This document shows, piece by piece, positions 12,318 to 23,380 of a stretch of DNA of 64,000 bases. Position 1 is the first letter of the stretch. Each line of letters starts with the position of its first letter. The DNA lies in the NCBI GenBank assembly GCA_021799275.1, contig JAJZAT010000001.1, positions 161,431 to 225,430 of the forward strand, in the 5' to 3' direction. The translations under genes and the position numbers were made by a program. Source of the DNA: Bacillota bacterium. Lineage in GTDB: Bacteria > Bacillota > Sulfobacillia > JAJZYS01 > JAJYTV01. Below the pieces are notes generated by a model. The model was not told the origin of the DNA. It did no database searches and worked only from the letters and a program-made list of their open reading frames with translations.

Positions 12318-13709
12318 TTGACGCATTTCCGACATATCTCGGCAAACTCCTGCAGAGAGGGATGCAGCATCATCGAAGACTCATCCACGAGCAGCCTCGC
12401 GGCTTGGGAGCAGGCGTTCCCGGCGGGGGCCTGGGCGTCCGGCGAGGACTATGTCCTCGGCGAACGCGTCCAGGAGCTGAGGCGCGACGGCGCCACGCTG
12501 GCCGGCCGCGTCCAAGGGACCCACGGCGACTACTGGGTGCGACTCGAACTGAGGCTGCCGGTGGCTTCGGCCTGCGATTGCGGCAGGCCGCGCTGCAGGC
12601 ATGCCGCCGCTCTCGTCCAGGCCTATCTTGCCCGCCGATGGCCGGTGACCGATGTCGGGCTGCTGGTGGACGAGTTCCCCCGCCGTCCGCGCAGGGAGCC
12701 GCTTACCGCCGCGGCCATGGGCGCGGATTTCGTATCCGCGCTCGAGCTGCCGCTCATGGACTTCGAGGACATCTGGGCCCTGCAGGGCGAGCGGCGCCTG
12801 CTTGCCCTCGACGCGGCCCTGAGGGTCGCGCCCGACCCCTATCGCCTGCTCCTGCGTGCCCTGCCGGAGGCGGAGCACGACCGGGGCCTGCAGGTGCTGC
12901 TGGCAAGCGCGTTCTCGAGCCGCCCGCCCGCCGCCGCAATCTGGCCGAGCCTCCTTGGCGCGGCCCCACCCGCGCTCGCGCCGCTCATTTCGGACCTGCG
13001 ACCGGAGGACCTCAAGCCCGAGGCTGTCCTCGCTGCGCTCTGGCAGGCCGCCGCGGACAAGGACAGACAGGCCCTCCTGCGCCTCGCGCCGCACGTCGCG
13101 GCGCTTGCGCCGAAGGAGGCCGCGGACGCGCTCGAGCACCTCAGCCGCGAAGCGCCCGGGCTGATCCCTGCCCTGGTGACGGCGGCCAAGGGTGCACGTC
13201 GTCTGCAGCGCGTCGCCGCAAGGCTCCTCGGCTGGGCAGACTCCTTGCCGGCGGACGAGACCGCGGCCGTGGAGCGGGCCCTCGGCGCGCAGGAAGATCT
13301 GCCCCCGCGACTAAGGCTGCTGCTGCGGGTGCGTGAGGCGGCCGCGGCGGGCGGCGCCGCGCAAATCCTGGCCGCACGGCGGGCCGCCCTGTCGGCGGGC
13401 GCCTGGCCGGGCCTACGGCCCGTGATGCTGCGGCGCATACGCCAGCGAAGCGACGGCCCCATCCTCGAAACGCAGCTTCTGATCGCGGAAGGTGATCTCG
13501 GCGCCGCGGCGCGCACCGCCGAACGCTGCCGCTCCTCGCCCTTGCCGGAGCGCCTGGTCGCCGAAGCACTGCGCAGCGTCGACCCGGCCGAGGCGAGGCG
13601 CCACGAACTCCGGGCGCAGGCCCTCGCCGCGCAGCTGCAAGGCGGCGAAGAGCGGCCCAGGAGCAGGTTCGGCGATCGGCCAGGAAGAAATCCTAGGCCA
13701 CGGAGGTGA
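12318..13709 (+). CDS. SWIM zinc-finger domain protein with Ala/Leu-rich helical C-terminal region
   Basis: CDCGRPRCRHAAALV is a C-x-C-x(n)-C-x-H SWIM motif. The TTG start is taken from the ORF track and the 5' end is uncertain. Confidence 0.65.
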   Translation: MTHFRHISANSCREGCSIIEDSSTSSLAAWEQAFPAGAWASGEDYVLGERVQELRRDGATLAGRVQGTHGDYWVRLELRLPVASACDCGRPRCRHAAALVQAYLARRWPVTDVGLLVDEFPRRPRREPLTAAAMGADFVSALELPLMDFEDIWALQGERRLLALDAALRVAPDPYRLLLRALPEAEHDRGLQVLLASAFSSRPPAAAIWPSLLGAAPPALAPLISDLRPEDLKPEAVLAALWQAAADKDRQALLRLAPHVAALAPKEAADALEHLSREAPGLIPALVTAAKGARRLQRVAARLLGWADSLPADETAAVERALGAQEDLPPRLRLLLRVREAAAAGGAAQILAARRAALSAGAWPGLRPVMLRRIRQRSDGPILETQLLIAEGDLGAAARTAERCRSSPLPERLVAEALRSVDPAEARRHELRAQALAAQLQGGEERPRSRFGDRPGRNPRPRR

Positions 13710-15869: not shown

Positions 15870-15899
15870 GAGCCCTGGATCGTAGTGAGGAGGGCTTAT

Positions 15900-17027
15900 G
15901 TGCTCTCGTTGATCATTCCGACGTTCAACGAACGCGACAACATCCAGCCCCTTTATGAGCGGGTTCGCAATGCTCTGGGCGCTGAGGAATACGAAATCAT
16001 CTTCGTCGACGACAGCGTCGACGAGACCACACGCGAGATCGCCCGCCTTGCGGCGGAGGACCCCCGCGTGCGGCTTCTGCACCGTCGCGAGCGCGGTCTC
16101 TCGACCGCCGTCATCGCAGGCTTCGGTGCCGCCCAGGGCGACCTCGTCGCGGTGATGGACGCCGATCTCCAGCACCCGCCAGAGATCCTGCCGCGGATGC
16201 TCGAGGCGCAGCGCCAGCGCACGGCCGATCTCGTGGTGCCGTCCCGTTACATCGACGGCGGCAATCCCGGCGGTCTCGACGGGCCGATCCGGCGCATGCT
16301 TTCGCTCGGCGGCAGGGCACTCGCTCATGTCATGCTGCGTGAGAGCCGCTCCACCACCGATCCGATGTCCGGCTTCTTCCTGGCCACGCGTGAGGCCGTC
16401 CTGCCGCTGCTCGGCGCGAAGCCCAAGGGCTTCAAGATCCTGCTGGAGCTGCTCGTGCGCGGGCGTGTGCGCCGCACGGTGGAGGTGCCGTACACCTTCG
16501 CCGCGCGCTCGGCCAACCAGTCCAAGCTCGGCTGGAAAACGCAGGTGGACTACCTGCGGCAACTCCTGGACCTTGTGCCGGTCCATCCGGAGAACACGCG
16601 GTTTTTCCTGTTCGCGCTCGTAGGCGCCACAGGCGTCGCCGTCAACGCCGCGCTCTTCGCGCTCCTCACAAGCGACCTCCTGACCGGCGTGGAATACGCG
16701 GCCCTGCTCGCCTCGCCGATTGCCTCGAATGCGGCGATCATCTGGAACTTCGCCTGGAACACGACGATCACCTGGCGTGACCGCTACCGCTCCGAGCACC
16801 TCTGGCGGCACGCGATCCGCTACGTGCTGGTCTCCGAAATGGGCACCCTGCTCACTTGGCTCGTGCTCGTCATCCTGCGGTCCATGGGCCTCCACTTCGA
16901 CCTGCTGGACCAGTTGATCGGCATTGGCGTGGCGGTGCTCGCCACCTACCGTCTGAACGATCGCTGGACCTATCTGCCCGCCGGCGAACCGATCCTCGAG
17001 CCCGAGCGCAGCGCCTCGCGCCGCTAA
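15900..17027 (+). CDS. GT2 polyprenol-phosphate glycosyltransferase (Dpm1/Ppm-like) fused to a GtrA-like membrane domain
   Basis: LSLIIPTFNERDNI...IIFVDDSVDET...VMDADLQHPP, then a 4-TM GtrA-like tail (FFLFALVGATGVAVN...NFAWNTTITW). GTG at 15900 lies 5 nt after GAGGAGGG. The track start is 15885. Confidence 0.85.
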   Translation: MLSLIIPTFNERDNIQPLYERVRNALGAEEYEIIFVDDSVDETTREIARLAAEDPRVRLLHRRERGLSTAVIAGFGAAQGDLVAVMDADLQHPPEILPRMLEAQRQRTADLVVPSRYIDGGNPGGLDGPIRRMLSLGGRALAHVMLRESRSTTDPMSGFFLATREAVLPLLGAKPKGFKILLELLVRGRVRRTVEVPYTFAARSANQSKLGWKTQVDYLRQLLDLVPVHPENTRFFLFALVGATGVAVNAALFALLTSDLLTGVEYAALLASPIASNAAIIWNFAWNTTITWRDRYRSEHLWRHAIRYVLVSEMGTLLTWLVLVILRSMGLHFDLLDQLIGIGVAVLATYRLNDRWTYLPAGEPILEPERSASRR

Positions 17028-17030
17028 GGC

Positions 17031-18179
17031 ATGGTAACTGCCCAAACCCCGGCGCGCCGGCGCGAGCCCCATTGGCGCGAGCGTATGCCGCTCGCGCTGA
17101 GAGGCTTTCTGTTCACGCTGATCCCGATCTGGCTCATCGGCCTCCTGGGCCTGTGGCTGGTACCGATCCATGCGCATCACTGGATGCCTCCCGTGACGCG
17201 TTGGCTCGGGCTCTTCGCGCGCTGGGACTCGGCATGGTACTTCCACATCGCCGAAATCGGCTACTGGCGCACCGCGGCCTATGCCTTCTCCCCGCTCTAC
17301 CCCGTGCTCATGCGGGGCCTGCACGTCGTTACCGGGTTGCCTCTGGTACTGAGCGGCGAACTGATCGGATGGGCGTCGGACCTCGTGGCACTCTTCTTCC
17401 TCGTCCGGCTCTGGCGCGAGGAGGCGGGGGCGGAGGTGGCGCGCCGGGCCCTCTGGCTGCTCCTCGCGTACCCTGCCGCCTTCTTCCTCCTCGCGATGTA
17501 CCCCGAATCGCTCTACCTCCTGCTCTCCGTCGTCACCTACCTGCTGCTGCGGCGCAGCCGCTATCTCTGGGCCGCCGTCGCGATGGCCTTCGCCGCGCTC
17601 TCGCGCGCCAACGGCATTCTGCTGATCCTGCCGTACCTCGCGTTCGCGTGGGAAAGCTCCGGTCGCAGACTCGACCGCCTGTTCTGGCGGCGGGCCGCGC
17701 TCTCCCTGATCGGCGTCGCCGGGCTGTCGATCTACCTCGGCTACAGCTGGGCAACGACCGGCAACCCGCTGCAGTTCCTGGCGCAGCAGGCCACCTGGCA
17801 CCGCCATTTCACAGGCGGCGCCTTCGCGCTCGCCTACGCCCTGATCCACATCTTCTACGGCCAGGGACTGCCCCTGACCATCACCGACTTCCTGGCGCCC
17901 CTCGCGTTTCTTGGCCTGATCGCCTTCGATCGCGGCCGTCTGACCCTTGGCGACAAGCTCTACGTCTTTTTCGGCGTGCTGTCGATCCTGGTCGACCCAT
18001 CGATTCCAAACGGCTTCGTCCTGATGAGCGCGACACGTCTCGTCATGCCGTACTTCCCCGTCTACCGCGTAGCGGCCGAATGGCTGACCGAGCGTCAGTG
18101 GCGCATAGCCTTGGGGGTGATGGGCTTCTTGCAGCTCTGGTTCTGGTTCACGTATACGCACTGGTGGTTTTCCGGGTAG
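17031..18179 (+). CDS. GT-C fold membrane glycosyltransferase (PIG-V / mannosyltransferase-like)
   Basis: Polytopic, and FARWDSAWYFHIAEIGY resembles the PIG-V family motif. Confidence 0.7.
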   Translation: MVTAQTPARRREPHWRERMPLALRGFLFTLIPIWLIGLLGLWLVPIHAHHWMPPVTRWLGLFARWDSAWYFHIAEIGYWRTAAYAFSPLYPVLMRGLHVVTGLPLVLSGELIGWASDLVALFFLVRLWREEAGAEVARRALWLLLAYPAAFFLLAMYPESLYLLLSVVTYLLLRRSRYLWAAVAMAFAALSRANGILLILPYLAFAWESSGRRLDRLFWRRAALSLIGVAGLSIYLGYSWATTGNPLQFLAQQATWHRHFTGGAFALAYALIHIFYGQGLPLTITDFLAPLAFLGLIAFDRGRLTLGDKLYVFFGVLSILVDPSIPNGFVLMSATRLVMPYFPVYRVAAEWLTERQWRIALGVMGFLQLWFWFTYTHWWFSG

Positions 18180-18330
18180 GCCTCGGCCTACTCTTGGCTC
18201 ACTCTAAGTTTGTTCCGTTACGGTCCTAGAAGGCTCCGCGTCCCCGAATTCTATGCTACCGTAGTTGCGGTTGTATCGGGCACAGAACGCAAATCGACGC
18301 CTCGCGTCGGTACGTCGAAGGAGGATCTTC

Positions 18331-19506
18331 TTGCGCATACTGATCATCGGCGGCGACGGTTACCTGGGCTGGCCCACGGCCATGCATTTCGCCCAGCGCG
18401 GGCATGAGGTCGCGGTGCTCGACAACATGGTCAAACGGCGCTGGGAGAGCGAGCTCGGAGTGGCACCTCTCTGGCCGATCGCCAGCCTGACCGAGCGCGC
18501 GCAAGCCCTGCGCGAGACCACCGATCGCGAGGTCGAGGTGTTCGTCGGGGACGTCGGCGACAAGTCGGTGATCCGCGGCGTCCTGTCGCGCTTCATGCCG
18601 GACGCGATCGTGCACTACGGCGAGCAGCCGTCGGCGCCGTTCTCGATGATCGACGTCGAGCACGCCATCCTCTCGCAGCAGAACAACGTGCTCGGCACCC
18701 TGCAGCTCGCCTTCGCCATGCACGACATCGTACCGGACGCGCACCTCATCAAGCTGGGCACGATGGGCGAGTACGGCACGCCGAACATCGACATCGAGGA
18801 AGGCTACATCGAGATCGAGCACAACGGCCGCCGCGACCGCCTGCCCTTCCCGAAGAGCCCGGGCTCCTTCTACCACCTCTCGAAGGTGCACGACTCGCAC
18901 AACCTGATGTTCGCCGCGAAGCTCTGGAACATGCGCATCACGGACCTGAACCAGGGCGTCGTCTACGGCACCACGACCGACGAGACCGCGATCGATCCGC
19001 GGCTTGCGACGAGCTTCCACTATGACGAGTACTTCGGCACCGTGATCAACCGCTTCGTCGCCCAGGCCGTGGCCGGTATGCCGCTCACCGTGTACGGCAA
19101 GGGCGGCCAGAAGCGCGGCTACCTCAACATCCGGGACACGTTGCAGTGCGTGGAGATCGCCGCGACGAATCCGGCGTCACCCGGCGAGTTCCGGGTGTTC
19201 AACCAGTTCACCGAGCAGTTCACGATCGACGAGCTCGCCGATCTCGTCGTGGAGGCTGCCGCAAGGCAGGGCATCCACGCGGAGAAGAAGTCGATCCAGA
19301 ACCCGCGCATGGAGCTCGAAAGCCACCACTACAACGCGCGCAACAGCGGCCTCATGGGCCTCGGCCTCCAGCCGCACCGCCTCACCGTCGACGTGCTCGC
19401 CGGCATGATCGCCTGGGCCGCGGAGCACCCGGAGCGCATCGATCGCAACGTCATCATCCCGACCGTCCAGTGGCGCAAGGAGCCTCAGGGCGTCCGCGAG
19501 TCCTGA
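18331..19506 (+). CDS. sqdB: UDP-sulfoquinovose synthase (SQD1/SqdB/Agl3 family)
   Basis: [74 protein letters not shown] and [10 protein letters not shown] are SQD1-type signatures. TTG at 18331 follows GAAGGAGGA. Confidence 0.9.
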   Translation: [391 protein letters not shown]

Positions 19507-19545
19507 TCAGCATCCGGCCGATGTGGCCAGAAGGGGGGTGGACAC

Positions 19546-20472
19546 ATGCGCCAGAGGTTTTGGACGTGGGGCATCCCGGCGGTCTTTTCGCTCGCCGGGA
19601 TCTACGCCGTCGTGAAGAGCCTCGGTTCGCTCAACATGCTCTGGCGCGTCCACCCCTACTGGCCGGACCTTCTGCTGGTCCTCGTCGTCTATCCCGTCTT
19701 CGCCGCGGGGCGGGGGCTGCGCTTCCGCCAGCTGCTGCGTGACGAAGCCAACTGGCAGAGGACGGTCGGGCTCGGCTGGCTCTACTCCGCCGCCTGCAGC
19801 GTGCTGCCCGGCGGTATCGGCGAGGTATCCCTGCCGCTCATCTACCGGAGCGCCCCCGGCGGTCCGGCGCATGCGACGGCCGCCATGGCGGTGGCCAGGG
19901 TGCAGGACCTCCTGTCCTGGCTCGTGATCCTGGTCATCGCGGGCTTTGCCGTCTCCAACCTGCCCACGGACTCCATGGCGCTCCTCGGCATCTCGCTCGT
20001 CGTGACGGCCTTGGGCACGCTCATGGTGTTCGTGCCGCCGGCGCGGCGCTTCCTCTTCCGTCTGGCGGGCCTGATTCCCTGGCCGAAGCTGCACCGCTTC
20101 CTCGCGCAGATCGACGAGCGGCTCGGCGGGATGGTCTACAATGTACCCAGCTGGGTGGTCACCTTCGGGCTGCGCCTCCTCAGCATCCTTTCCTACTACC
20201 TCGCGCTGCGGGCCTTCGGTGCGCCGGTCACGTTCGCCGAAGCCTCCGTCGGCGGCGCGCTCGCGGCCCTGCTGCTGGTGCTGCCCGTCCAGGGCGTCGC
20301 CGGGCTCGGCACGGTCGAGGTGTGGTGGATCATGATCCTGCGCCTTTTCGGCACGCCCTGGTCGGTCGCCGCCGTGGCGGCCATCGGTGTGCACATGACC
20401 CTGCTCGTCCTGTCGGTGGCCGTCGGCGGCCTGTCGTTCAAGACGGCCCCGGGCCTTCTATCCACTACGTGA
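19546..20472 (+). CDS. LPG-synthase-TM / flippase-like membrane protein (UPF0104)
   Basis: About 8 TM segments. Its pattern and its position beside GT2 genes are typical of the family. Confidence 0.65.
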   Translation: MRQRFWTWGIPAVFSLAGIYAVVKSLGSLNMLWRVHPYWPDLLLVLVVYPVFAAGRGLRFRQLLRDEANWQRTVGLGWLYSAACSVLPGGIGEVSLPLIYRSAPGGPAHATAAMAVARVQDLLSWLVILVIAGFAVSNLPTDSMALLGISLVVTALGTLMVFVPPARRFLFRLAGLIPWPKLHRFLAQIDERLGGMVYNVPSWVVTFGLRLLSILSYYLALRAFGAPVTFAEASVGGALAALLLVLPVQGVAGLGTVEVWWIMILRLFGTPWSVAAVAAIGVHMTLLVLSVAVGGLSFKTAPGLLSTT

Positions 20473-20488
20473 ACGGAGGAGCGACACC

Positions 20489-21526
20489 ATGAGCGCCCTA
20501 CGCCTAGGCGGCATCCTGGTTGCACTGGTCCTCGGCTTCATGGTCCTGCGCGGGCTCTCGAGGCGCGCGCCGACCTCCGCCGACGGCCTCGGCTTCCTCG
20601 CCGCCCTCATCCTTCTCGCGGTCTCCCTCTTCCCCGGGCTCGTCAACGTCCCGACGGATCTCCTGCTGCTCGGTCGCGCGCCGCGCGGCCGCCTTCTCGC
20701 ACTCATCCTGTTTTCGAACATCGTGCTCTGGTTCTACACCTTCTGGTCCGCGGGCCTGCACCGCCGCAGCCATGAGCGGGCGGACGGCCAGCGCGAGGCC
20801 CTGGTGGCCCGGATCGCGTCGCAGGGCGCCTCGCCGGACCTGGACGGCGTCGTCATCGTGATGCCGGCCTACAACGAGGAGGGGTCGGTCGGGCAGGTGG
20901 TGCGCGGGCTGCCGGCTGAGATCCTCGGCCAGAAGGTCTACCCGGTCGTGGTCGCCGACGGCTGCAGCGACCAGACGGCCGCCGTGGCGCGCAGCGCCGG
21001 GGCGCTGGTGCTAGACCTGCCCATCAACATGGGCGGCGGCGCCGCCATCCGCATCGGCTACAACTTTGCCGCCCAGAACGGCGCCCGCGTCATCGTGACG
21101 ATGGACGCGGACGGGCAGCATCTCGCCTCCGACATCGAGGGGCTCGTCGCACCCATTTTGCGCGGCGACACCGACTTCGTGATCGGATCGCGGCGCCTGG
21201 GCTCGTTCGAGAAGGTAAGCTCCCTGCGCAGCGCGGGGCTCTCGTTCTTCAACCTTTTCCTCAACCTTCTGCTGCAGACACGGCTCACCGACTGCTCCTC
21301 CGGCTTCCGCGCCTTCGACGCGCACAAGCTGACGCACCTCGAGACGTCGGAAAGCCAGTACCACACCTCCGAGACCATCATGCTGGTACGTCGACTCGGT
21401 CTGCGCATCGCGGAGCGCCCGATCACGGTCCAGCGCCGCATCGCCGGCCAGAGCAAGAAGGGCAACGACCTGGTGTACGGCTATCGGTTCGCGCGCACCA
21501 TGCTCACCCGCTGGCTGCGCGGGTAA
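20489..21526 (+). CDS. GT2 glycosyltransferase with N-terminal DUF2304-like membrane domain
   Basis: VVIVMPAYNEEGSVG...VVVADGCSDQT...VTMDADGQH, preceded by 3-4 TM helices. Confidence 0.85.
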   Translation: MSALRLGGILVALVLGFMVLRGLSRRAPTSADGLGFLAALILLAVSLFPGLVNVPTDLLLLGRAPRGRLLALILFSNIVLWFYTFWSAGLHRRSHERADGQREALVARIASQGASPDLDGVVIVMPAYNEEGSVGQVVRGLPAEILGQKVYPVVVADGCSDQTAAVARSAGALVLDLPINMGGGAAIRIGYNFAAQNGARVIVTMDADGQHLASDIEGLVAPILRGDTDFVIGSRRLGSFEKVSSLRSAGLSFFNLFLNLLLQTRLTDCSSGFRAFDAHKLTHLETSESQYHTSETIMLVRRLGLRIAERPITVQRRIAGQSKKGNDLVYGYRFARTMLTRWLRG

Positions 21527-21532
21527 GGCGAA

Positions 21533-23380
21533 GTGGCAAAGGCGGACGCGGTCGCTCCGCAGCGCAAGGGCCTCGGCGAAGTGCTGAGGCCCGCTCTGCA
21601 TGCCGTCGGCGGCCTGATTCCGCCAAGGCGCCGCAGGGAACTTGAACGGAGGGGGACGACGCCTTACGGCTTCGGCCTCGGCCTCGCCGTCTACCTCGCG
21701 CTGACCCTCGCCGTTCTGGGACCCTCGCTCGTGCATCCCGGCGGGAGCTTCCCGGGCTATGGCGGTGACGCCGAACAGTACATGTGGTACCTCGGCTGGT
21801 TCTGGCACGCCATCGGCGCGGGCCGGAACCCGTTCGTCACGTCCCTGATCAACTACCCGCACGGCATGAACCTGATGTGGAACACGTCGATCCTGGCGGA
21901 ATCGGCCCTGCTGGGTCCGATCGCCGTCCTGATCGGCACCGCCGCCACCTACAATCTCTGGTTTCTCCTGAACTACGTGCTGGCCGGCGTCCTGGGCCAG
22001 GCGATCTGCGCCCGCCTGGGCGCCCGCCAGTGGCTCAGCATTCTCGGAGGGCTCCTCGCGGTGACCCTGCCCTACATGACGACGCAGTCGCTCTCGCACA
22101 TCAGCCTGATCACGATCGAGCTGCTGCTCGGGATCCTGCTGATCCTCGTGAAGATCGTGCAGGACCGGCCGCGGCGCGCGTGGCTCTGGGGCGTTCTAGC
22201 GGGGGCTTTGCTCGCCATGCAGTTCTACACCCTGCTCGAGGTACTTGTGAGCGCCGTCCTCACGTTCGCGCTCACGCTGGTCGTCGCCTGGTTTGTGGCC
22301 CGCCCCGATCTCGTCCGGCTGGCGCGGCGCATCCCGCTCGGGTTCTGGGTCGCGGCGGCGATCACGGCCGCGGCGCTTGCCCTGCCCGGCCTATACGAGA
22401 TGCTGTTCGGTCCGTTCCGCGTCTTCCACTCGGTGCAGCCGGAGAACGTCTACGTCGTGGACCTCGTCAACCTCATCCTGCCGACCCACGCCTTCCTCGT
22501 GCACTTCCCCGGCACCGACCCCGCCGCGTGGTTCACGGGCAACTACGCCGAGGATAACGGCTACCTCGGCGTCCCGGCCCTGCTCCTGCTCAACTGGGCC
22601 ATACGCCGGCTGTGGCACCGCCCTCTGGTGCGCGTGCTCGCGATCGTTGCAGGCATCGTCACGCTGCTCGGACTCGGTCACTCGCTGCACCTGATCGGCT
22701 GGACGTCTCCACTGCCGCTGCCCTGGGCGGCCGCTTCCCTGCTGCCCTTCATCAAGGACCTGCTGCCGACGCGCCTCATGCTCTACACCGACCTCGCCGT
22801 CGTGGCCATCTCGGTGCTGGCGATCGAGGACTACCTGCGCAGCGGCAACGCCACCGCCGGTCGCAGACCGTACTGGCTGTTCGGCCTGATGATCGCCACA
22901 TGGCTGCCGGTCCTGCCCTACCCCAACACCACCCTGCCGCAGGCCACCGTCGACATGGCGCCGCAGACCGCAGTGGCGAAGGCGCTGCGGGGACAGCCCA
23001 CGTACGTGCTCACCCGGGCGTTCCCGGAGACCATGCAGATGCTGCAAGAGGCCGATTACAGCTTTCCGGTCGCCAATGTCTACGGGCACAACGACAACAG
23101 TCTGAGCCGCCAGCAGCAGTTGCAAGGGGTGCAGGTGCTCCTGAACCCGAACCTCGCGCCGGAGATCTACCAGACGATCCTGGTCGACGATCTGATGCGG
23201 CTGCGCGTCACGCGGCTCTACTACCTGCCGCGCCCGGTCTACGGTTCCACGACGATTCCGCAGGAGGCCCTGCGACAGATCAACGCGACGCTGGGGCCGC
23301 CGATCGCCGCCTCACCCACAGGCAGCATCGTCTGGCGCGTCCCCAGGACGCCGGCGTTCGAGCAGAGCCCACAACCTTGA
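21533..23380 (+). CDS. large polytopic membrane protein, candidate GT-C-type glycosyltransferase with C-terminal extracytoplasmic domain
   Basis: 615 aa with more than 10 predicted TM helices. Early loop motif GYGGDAEQYMWYLGWFWHA, and a soluble C-terminal region of about 170 aa. Confidence 0.6.
   Translation: MAKADAVAPQRKGLGEVLRPALHAVGGLIPPRRRRELERRGTTPYGFGLGLAVYLALTLAVLGPSLVHPGGSFPGYGGDAEQYMWYLGWFWHAIGAGRNPFVTSLINYPHGMNLMWNTSILAESALLGPIAVLIGTAATYNLWFLLNYVLAGVLGQAICARLGARQWLSILGGLLAVTLPYMTTQSLSHISLITIELLLGILLILVKIVQDRPRRAWLWGVLAGALLAMQFYTLLEVLVSAVLTFALTLVVAWFVARPDLVRLARRIPLGFWVAAAITAAALALPGLYEMLFGPFRVFHSVQPENVYVVDLVNLILPTHAFLVHFPGTDPAAWFTGNYAEDNGYLGVPALLLLNWAIRRLWHRPLVRVLAIVAGIVTLLGLGHSLHLIGWTSPLPLPWAAASLLPFIKDLLPTRLMLYTDLAVVAISVLAIEDYLRSGNATAGRRPYWLFGLMIATWLPVLPYPNTTLPQATVDMAPQTAVAKALRGQPTYVLTRAFPETMQMLQEADYSFPVANVYGHNDNSLSRQQQLQGVQVLLNPNLAPEIYQTILVDDLMRLRVTRLYYLPRPVYGSTTIPQEALRQINATLGPPIAASPTGSIVWRVPRTPAFEQSPQP

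Follow-up and report, generated by a model that had tools for sequence, protein, structure and literature searches.

A locus of six genes in a 64-kb stretch of DNA from an uncultured, heat-loving Bacillota bacterium of mine drainage (the whole stretch is hereafter called the window) is predicted to encode a two-module, lipid-carrier-dependent system that would bring sulfoquinovose via polyprenyl phosphate to an extracytoplasmic acceptor, a reading that we favour with moderate confidence. On this reading, it would belong, as a variant with a new sugar, to the multi-component transmembrane glycosylation systems that are already known. At the centre of the argument lies a comparative observation: sqdB, the gene for the UDP (uridine diphosphate)-sulfoquinovose synthase, is recurrently linked with genes for polyprenyl-phosphate-type GT2 glycosyltransferases and for non-orthologous GT-C glycosyltransferases in three phyla. 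The six genes, with their products and the basis of each assignment, are the following:

15885..17027, + strand: g1, DPMS-type GT2 with a GtrA-like transmembrane domain, 380 aa (Pfam, alignment with 5MLZ)
17031..18179, + strand: g2, PIG-V-like GT-C, 382 aa (Pfam PF04188)
18331..19506, + strand: g3, SqdB, UDP-sulfoquinovose synthase of the SQD1 family, 391 aa (match to SQD1 1QRR, tree)
19546..20472, + strand: g4, UPF0104 / MprF-flippase-domain-like membrane protein, 308 aa (Pfam PF03706)
20489..21526, + strand: g5, membrane-anchored GT2 of the DPMS/ArnC/PpgS kind, 345 aa (NCBIfam, family profile, structural model)
21533..23380, + strand: g6, protein with a modelled GT-C fold, DUF6311 family, 615 aa (AlphaFold model and Foldseek)

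In the list of open reading frames (ORFs) of the window, all six genes were found on the + strand between positions 15885 and 23380, tightly packed and separated by gaps of 3 nt (g1-g2), 151 nt (g2-g3), 39 nt (g3-g4), 16 nt (g4-g5) and 6 nt (g5-g6). An earlier annotation made from the letters without database searches (the sequence-only reading) had already placed six same-strand genes in one locus, and had described their products as a Dpm1-like GT2 fused to GtrA, a PIG-V-like GT-C, an SQD1/SqdB-type synthase with strong signature motifs, a flippase-like UPF0104 protein, a DUF2304-GT2 and a 615-aa polytopic protein. These descriptions held in the analyses presented below, those of the first GT2 and of the polytopic protein in a strengthened form, apart from the DUF2304 label, which remained below threshold.

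Judged by its sequence, g3 is a bona fide SQD1/SqdB orthologue. The protein matched Arabidopsis SQD1 (1QRR) over its full length (residues 2-383; 491.5 bits, E 1.9e-146), while the next structure families reached 37 bits at most. Its motifs GGDGYLG, GTMGEYG and SFYHLSKVHDSHN are identical to those of SQD1 in the alignment; we take the first to be the N-terminal GxxGxxG site for nicotinamide adenine dinucleotide (NAD), and the other two to represent the catalytic Thr and the Tyr-His-x-x-Lys region of SQD1. The gene starts with a TTG codon preceded by a GGAGG site. Identity of g3 to SqdBs from other phyla was 57-68%, and in a tree of 87 SqdB sequences, including plant SQD1, it fell into a well-supported clade of seven Bacillota inside the family. 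A phylogeny had been proposed by the sequence-only reading as a check on the sqdB-like ORF; given the position of g3 in this tree and the scores of only ~42 bits obtained with the GalE and dTDP-glucose dehydratase models of NCBIfam, the identification of g3 as an ordinary epimerase or dehydratase was rejected. An exact look-up of the g3 protein sequence returned no identical record, and relatives were used for the comparison.

That g3 makes another nucleotide sugar, for instance a different 6-substituted or a 4-keto sugar, which the system would then carry, strikes us as very improbable. Enzymes of the short-chain dehydrogenase/reductase type do change specificity, and on the NCBIfam model for UDP-sulfoquinovose synthase (NF041015) g3 scored 466 bits against an equivalog cut-off of 575. 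However, control SqdBs of two cyanobacteria and of Alicyclobacillus, whose genes immediately precede one for an SqdX-type GT4, scored 472-488 bits on the same model. Since these sqdX-linked proteins also fall below 575 bits, the cut-off does not discriminate bacterial SqdBs and says nothing against g3, and the sub-threshold score was accordingly rejected as evidence against its identity. The full-length SQD1 match, the identical Thr and Tyr-His-x-x-Lys region and the low scores with the GalE and dehydratase models likewise disfavour a different product.

The second protein of interest, g5, is a candidate UDP-sulfoquinovose:polyprenyl-phosphate sulfoquinovosyltransferase. Its best NCBIfam matches were PpgS, the polyprenyl-phospho-N-acetylgalactosamine synthase (112 bits), followed by AglJ (86 bits) and a Dol-P-hexose transferase (62 bits). 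A family profile built from 41 members matched DPMS (108 bits), ArnC (83 bits) and GtrB (53 bits) in the PDB. The motifs DADGQH and R..G.SKK were invariant in the 41 members and aligned with DADLQH and RARGESK of DPMS and with REFGESK of ArnC. In line with these results, the best structural matches of the g5 model (predicted local distance difference test (pLDDT) 88) in a Foldseek search were ArnC and DPMS, with a root-mean-square deviation of 2.7 Å for DPMS. The model contains three N-terminal helices fused ahead of the GT2 domain. Of the earlier label DUF2304-GT2, the GT2 part was confirmed with Pfam, while the N-terminal 124 residues scored 18.3 bits on DUF2304 (PF10066), below the cut-off of 25.5; the orthologue in locus L068 scored 17.5 bits.

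With regard to g6, the protein is polytopic, with about nine hydrophobic segments. Searched against a local copy of Pfam it gave no match, even at E 10, while its orthologues carry a precomputed match to DUF6311 (PF19830) and one relative is named RgtA/B/C/D-like. Because the DUF6311 match was not reproduced with the local Pfam, the assignment of g6 to the GT-C enzymes rests on its AlphaFold model, which was obtained with 25 homologues (pLDDT 87.7, predicted template modelling score 0.86). The top 31 matches of this model in a Foldseek search of the PDB were all GT-C enzymes (AglB, PglB, STT3, AftD, ArnT, Pmt4, ALG3 and EmbB), with a probability of 1.00 for the first 27 and query-normalised TM-scores of 0.27-0.50 (0.39-0.50 for the first 23). 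According to its modelled structure, g6 is therefore a GT-C fold glycosyltransferase, and we regard it as a candidate extracytoplasmic sulfoquinovosyltransferase with a putative donor and acceptor as outlined below. Residue D79, located in GDAEQY after the first hydrophobic segment (49-67), is at least 90% conserved in the 25 homologues and would correspond to the acidic residue of the first extracytoplasmic loop, where it may have a catalytic role.

Between sqdB and the GT2 gene lies g4, a candidate translocase of lipid-linked sulfoquinovose. It matched LPG_synthase_TM (PF03706), the MprF flippase-domain family, with 54 bits against a cut-off of 33.4, and has about seven hydrophobic segments. 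A UPF0104 gene occupies the same position between sqdB and the GT2 gene in L001 and L081-L090; members of the family also adjoin sqdB in Acidobacteriota (L024, L029, L030, L049 and L075) and g5 relatives in L094 and L098.

The gene neighbourhoods of sqdB in other genomes were then compared with that of the window. Two relatives, with SqdBs 92% and 76% identical to g3, have all six genes in the same order. In Bacillota metagenome-assembled genomes (MAGs) with an SqdB ~69% identical to g3, the order sqdB-UPF0104-GT2 is kept, with a GT2 52-55% identical to g5, while g1-g2 and the htpX setting are lost. In these MAGs, the sqdB core lies beside proS; next come a small PMT_2-like protein and, instead of a GT-C of the g6 type, one of the YfhO family. 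The relatives with a changed setting thus identify sqdB, UPF0104 and g5 as the constant core, the GT-C as an exchangeable component and g1-g2 as an added module. Further afield, an Actinomycetota MAG (L068) encodes SqdB, a g5-like protein and YfhO, many Solirubrobacterales carry sqdB beside a g5-like gene, and two acidobacterial loci (L046 and L030) combine a PMT_2 GT-C, an ArnC-like GT2 (207 bits to ArnC), UPF0104 and sqdB. When 80 species-level sqdB loci were surveyed, a g5-type GT2 was encoded within 6 kb in 14 of them and SqdX in 10.

The association was also examined in the reverse direction, by searching metagenome contigs with the g5 alignment and keeping those loci that were flanked on each side by 5 kb or more (n = 18). 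An sqdB gene, its product at least 45% identical to g3, was found in 15 of these 18 well-flanked loci, and PMT_2 GT-Cs were encoded between or beside sqdB and the g5-type gene. In addition, five long representatives of the g5 family (P0278, P0246, P0300, P0254 and P0287; 749-788 aa) consist of a PMT-like GT-C N-terminus and a g5-type GT2. Long relatives of g5 (734-788 aa) had been considered as possible SqdB::GT2 fusions, which was ruled out, as BLASTP detected no SqdB part and Pfam identified PMT-like GT-C N-termini. Recurrent GT-C neighbours and fusions between a GT-C and a g5-type GT2 are what would be expected if the product of the GT2 is the donor of the GT-C. The sequence-only reading had suggested that sulfoquinovose may be transferred via a lipid carrier to the envelope; this idea has now gained the support of the linkage in three phyla, the reverse search and the fusion proteins, and it remains a prediction drawn from sequences.

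In bacteria, the known occurrence of sulfoquinovose is essentially that of a head group in sulfoquinovosyl diacylglycerol (SQDG). The sequence-only reading had noted no GT4 of the SqdX/SqdD type in this region, and for SqdX this could be extended: a tblastn search (E<1e-8) with the SqdX of the Alicyclobacillus sqdB-sqdX locus (L005) detected no SqdX-like GT4 in the 64-kb window, the GT8 enzyme SqdD not being specifically searched for, while the same query detected SqdX in 10 other loci. In a 2026 review, SqdB-SqdX is presented as the route used by bacteria, and estimates of global sulfoquinovose cycling take SQDG as the source (PMC13436972). We consider it quite improbable that the locus follows this route, with g3 feeding an SqdX or SqdD encoded elsewhere, the neighbouring genes adding other sugars and the adjacency being due to coincidence or shared regulation. 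Such an arrangement would be compatible with the unlinked sqdB and sqdX genes of some cyanobacteria (PMC13436972), with an SqdX search that covered the window only, and with the presence of g1-g2, evidence that a sugar other than sulfoquinovose is handled by the locus as well. It fits poorly, however, with an sqdB-UPF0104-GT2 core that travels as a unit between genomic settings, with the presence of sqdB in 15 of the 18 well-flanked g5-family loci, with a pairing that recurs in three phyla and with the lack of an SqdX-like gene in the window. Since the partners of sqdB are GT2s of the polyprenyl-phosphate type and GT-Cs, we predict a product other than a diacylglycerol lipid.

The two remaining genes of the locus, g1 and g2, point to a second sugar. 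In g1, Pfam identified Glycos_transf_2 (110.5 bits) and GtrA_DPMS_TM (71.8 bits), and residues 6-362 aligned end to end with the Pyrococcus furiosus DPMS (5MLZ; 226.7 bits, E 5e-66); orthologues in L081 and L085 are 88% and 67% identical, respectively. On the basis of these matches, g1 is probably a DPMS-type polyprenyl-phosphate hexose synthase, with mannose as the probable sugar. The adjacent g2 matched Mannosyl_trans2 (PF04188, PIG-V family) with 34.8 bits against a cut-off of 22.4, covering profile positions 53-205 of 443, and has at least six hydrophobic segments. The adjacency of g1 and g2 is kept in L081, L084 and L085, and g2 is presumed to be the GT-C that uses the product of g1. With g1 and g5 resembling DPMS, and g2 and g6 being assigned to the GT-Cs, the locus thus holds two GT2s of the polyprenyl-phosphate type and two GT-Cs.

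In the mechanism that we propose, g3-g6 would constitute one module (module B) and g1-g2 the other (module A). Based on orthology, SqdB would firstly make UDP-sulfoquinovose from UDP-glucose and sulfite. g5 would then load sulfoquinovose onto polyprenyl phosphate at the cytoplasmic face of the membrane, g4 would flip the resulting polyprenyl-phospho-sulfoquinovose to the outer face, which is the weakest step of the scheme, and g6, whose fold is modelled, would hand the sugar to an envelope acceptor, with cell-wall glycopolymers, lipoglycans, teichoic-acid-like polymers and surface proteins as candidates. Module A would add a polyprenyl-phosphate-hexose synthase, probably for mannose, together with a dedicated GT-C whose acceptor would be identical or related to that of g6. 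The cell surface would gain a sulfonated decoration that contains no phosphate and remains anionic in acid, which is plausible for a mine-drainage bacterium. A broader version of this proposal holds that polyprenyl-phospho-sulfoquinovose is a real, undescribed intermediate, used by DUF6311, YfhO and PMT_2 GT-Cs on envelope polymers or proteins in non-phototrophs of at least three phyla (Bacillota, Actinomycetota and Acidobacteriota); here we consider the case for and against to be evenly balanced.

Several points weigh against a polyprenyl-linked route. The genome to which the window belongs is metagenome-assembled. The score of g5 on PpgS lies far below the equivalog cut-off of 370 bits, so that g5 is a relative of PpgS and not an orthologue, the soluble GpgS matched the g5 fold with a similar Foldseek score and, to our knowledge, the donor specificity of a GT2 cannot be read from its sequence. 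Three of the 18 well-flanked g5-family loci were devoid of sqdB, which indicates that the link between the family and this gene is not strict. As for g4, we know of no member of the UPF0104/MprF-domain family that flips polyprenyl-phosphate sugars, and the literature that we found on the MprF-flippase-like family concerns glycerolipids rather than such sugars. HexF, the stand-alone UPF0104 relative that has been studied experimentally, belongs to a glycolipid pathway (PMC10128005). Further, the acidobacterial contig L029 (111-5000) combines UPF0104, sqdB and an SqdX-like GT4, and UPF0104 may therefore be tied to sulfoquinovose lipids generally, rather than to polyprenyl carriers.

These last observations bear on an alternative in which g5 would place sulfoquinovose on a membrane glycerolipid or glycolipid (SQDG-like or a sulfoquinovosyl-hexosyl-diradylglycerol), g4 would flip this lipid, as proposed for HexS and HexF, and the GT-Cs would serve another sugar. 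We regard this as unlikely. In its favour, the HexSDF system of Clostridioides difficile pairs a stand-alone MprF-flippase-like protein with a membrane-lipid glycosyltransferase encoded beside it (PMC10128005); UPF0104 adjoins sqdB in the presence of an SqdX-like GT4 in L029, and many Solirubrobacterales loci comprise sqdB and the GT2 alone, with no GT-C nearby. The likeness to HexSDF is limited, however, as HexS is annotated as an enzyme of the monogalactosyldiacylglycerol-synthase type acting on a glycolipid (PMC10128005), unlike g5, and the HexSDF operon contains neither a GT-C nor SqdB. Moreover, all of the characterised enzymes nearest to g5 are transferases of the polyprenyl-phosphate kind, with DADxQH and RxxGxSK in common, GT-Cs of three families recur beside the sqdB-GT2 pair and fusions of a GT-C to a g5-type GT2 exist, all of which agrees better with transfer via polyprenyl phosphate.

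Some of the loci recovered in the comparison differ in composition from that of the window. In two low-GC marine loci, L094 (8001-13670) and L161 (8001-15991), there is a g5-family GT2 but no sqdB; downstream of this GT2, L094 encodes a sulfotransferase, UPF0104 and a large tetratricopeptide repeat (TPR) protein, and a large TPR protein is also present in L161. These loci may encode a parallel pathway whose lipid-linked sugar would carry a sulfate in place of a sulfonate group. In two Alphaproteobacteria MAGs (L002:8502-13212 and L023:8287-10013), sqdB lies by a gene for a NeuB-type nonulosonic acid synthase, not by sqdD, and near genes for a sulfotransferase-like protein, a CMP (cytidine monophosphate)-sugar cytidylyltransferase and a radical SAM/SPASM protein, a setting suggestive of a further use of sulfoquinovose outside lipids, of the polysaccharide type. 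Finally, in L008 (5461-6669) and about 30 acidobacterial loci (e.g., L037, L050 and L056), an HpnI-like hopanoid glycosyltransferase (283 bits against a cut-off of 310) is encoded a few kb from sqdB, with a PMT_2 GT-C and an asparagine synthase also nearby; hopanoids, lipid A or another molecule may be the target of sulfoquinovose in these loci.

The predicted system resembles several known ones. In Streptococcus pyogenes, GacI, GacJ, GacK and GacL build the N-acetylglucosamine side chain of the group A carbohydrate, where a GT2 loads polyprenyl phosphate from a UDP-sugar, the same logic as proposed here. The mycobacterial counterpart comprises PpgS (Rv3631), the best NCBIfam match of g5, together with Rv3632 and the GT-C Rv3779. 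In both cases, a lipid-linked sugar is flipped and then transferred by a GT-C to a wall polymer outside the membrane. Both also include a small DUF2304 membrane partner (GacJ and Rv3632 are reportedly linked to DUF2304; bioRxiv 10.1101/180810), which in g5 may be fused at the N-terminus, where the DUF2304 match was sub-threshold. This contrasts with the present locus in that here the predicted sugar is sulfoquinovose, SqdB is encoded in the operon, the GT-C belongs to DUF6311, g5 scores far below the PpgS cut-off, and an MprF-like UPF0104 protein takes the place of a Wzx-like or GtrA protein as candidate flippase.

A division of labour among a GT2 that makes the polyprenyl-phosphate sugar, a flippase and a GT-C likewise characterises GtrA/GtrB/GtrC, CsbB/GtcA/YfhO and ArnC/ArnE-F/ArnT. 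ArnC and GtrB, together with DPMS, are the closest solved relatives of g5, and YfhO and PMT_2 (ArnT-like) proteins occupy the equivalent position in related sqdB loci. The locus of the window departs from these three-component systems in the predicted donor sugar, in the family of the flippase candidate and in the extra g1-g2 module; further, g5 is anchored by N-terminal helices, while the GT2s of those systems are anchored by C-terminal ones.

With the SQDG systems, namely SqdB/SqdX of cyanobacteria (SQD1/SQD2 in plants) and SqdB/SqdD/SqdC of Rhodobacter and Sinorhizobium, the locus shares the first enzyme, of which g3 is an orthologue, but it lacks a GT4 SqdX partner in the locus and in the window. 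In the Agl3 system, sulfoquinovose is added to a dolichol-pyrophosphate-linked oligosaccharide that is moved whole by AglB, instead of passing as a monophosphate-linked single sugar to a GT-C. That system is archaeal, and is similar to the proposed one in its end-point, a surface glycoconjugate in an acidophile or thermophile. Agl3-dependent N-glycosylation, reported for Sulfolobus acidocaldarius, is such a non-lipid fate of UDP-sulfoquinovose (PMC4388408). Among full-text articles, we found no paper on polyprenyl-phosphate-linked or wall-polymer sulfoquinovose in bacteria, which, given incomplete coverage, amounts to absence of evidence only; nor was anything usable found on the lipids of Thermaerobacter or on sulfoquinovose in bacterial polysaccharides or glycoproteins. 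To these systems, the present locus adds a Bacillota (Thermaerobacter-related) case, a GT-C of the DUF6311 type and a second module of the DPMS/PIG-V type.

The g2-g3 gap, which separates the two modules, is the only sizeable one of the locus and contains one further feature:

18295..18309, no strand assigned: perfect 15-nt palindrome CGACGCCTCGCGTCG, inside the g2-g3 gap (sequence inspection)

This palindrome, which lacks a T-run, is located about 20 nt 5' of the sqdB start, just upstream of its ribosome-binding site, and may mark the border between modules g1-g2 and g3-g6. An Rfam scan of the window gave zero matches, which indicates that there is no riboswitch in the gap. A scan for promoters and terminators identified nothing beyond chance (three terminator-like sites in the region against 3.0 expected).

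As for the surroundings of the locus, the gene calls of relatives place htpX and a PspAB-like gene upstream and a convergent HD-GYP gene downstream. The window has a G+C content of ~68% and is matched by mine-drainage metagenome runs; among the metagenome assemblies that represent its closest relatives, one bears the label Thermaerobacter sp. The remaining large ORFs of the window code for cytochrome oxidase, UbiA, ABC transporters and proteins of that sort, and no additional glycan genes were found among them. An ORF at 12318-13709 (463 aa) was considered as a source of the acceptor protein and dropped, as its product looks cytoplasmic, has no Pfam match and contains a Cys/His-rich stretch (CDCGRPRCRH). 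This ORF is kept upstream of htpX in relatives and appears unrelated to the glycosylation locus.

If the proposed route is true, sulfoquinovose would join the activated donors of bacterial glycobiology as a new one, and a function could be proposed for the first time for GT-Cs of the DUF6311 family and for the stand-alone UPF0104 proteins at sqdB loci. For the bacterium itself, the outcome would be a phosphate-free, acid-stable anionic surface, with a purpose like that of teichuronic acids. At a larger scale, and under the broader version of the proposal, soils and mine waters would harbour a sizeable, uncounted pool of envelope-bound sulfoquinovose that could feed sulfoglycolysis.

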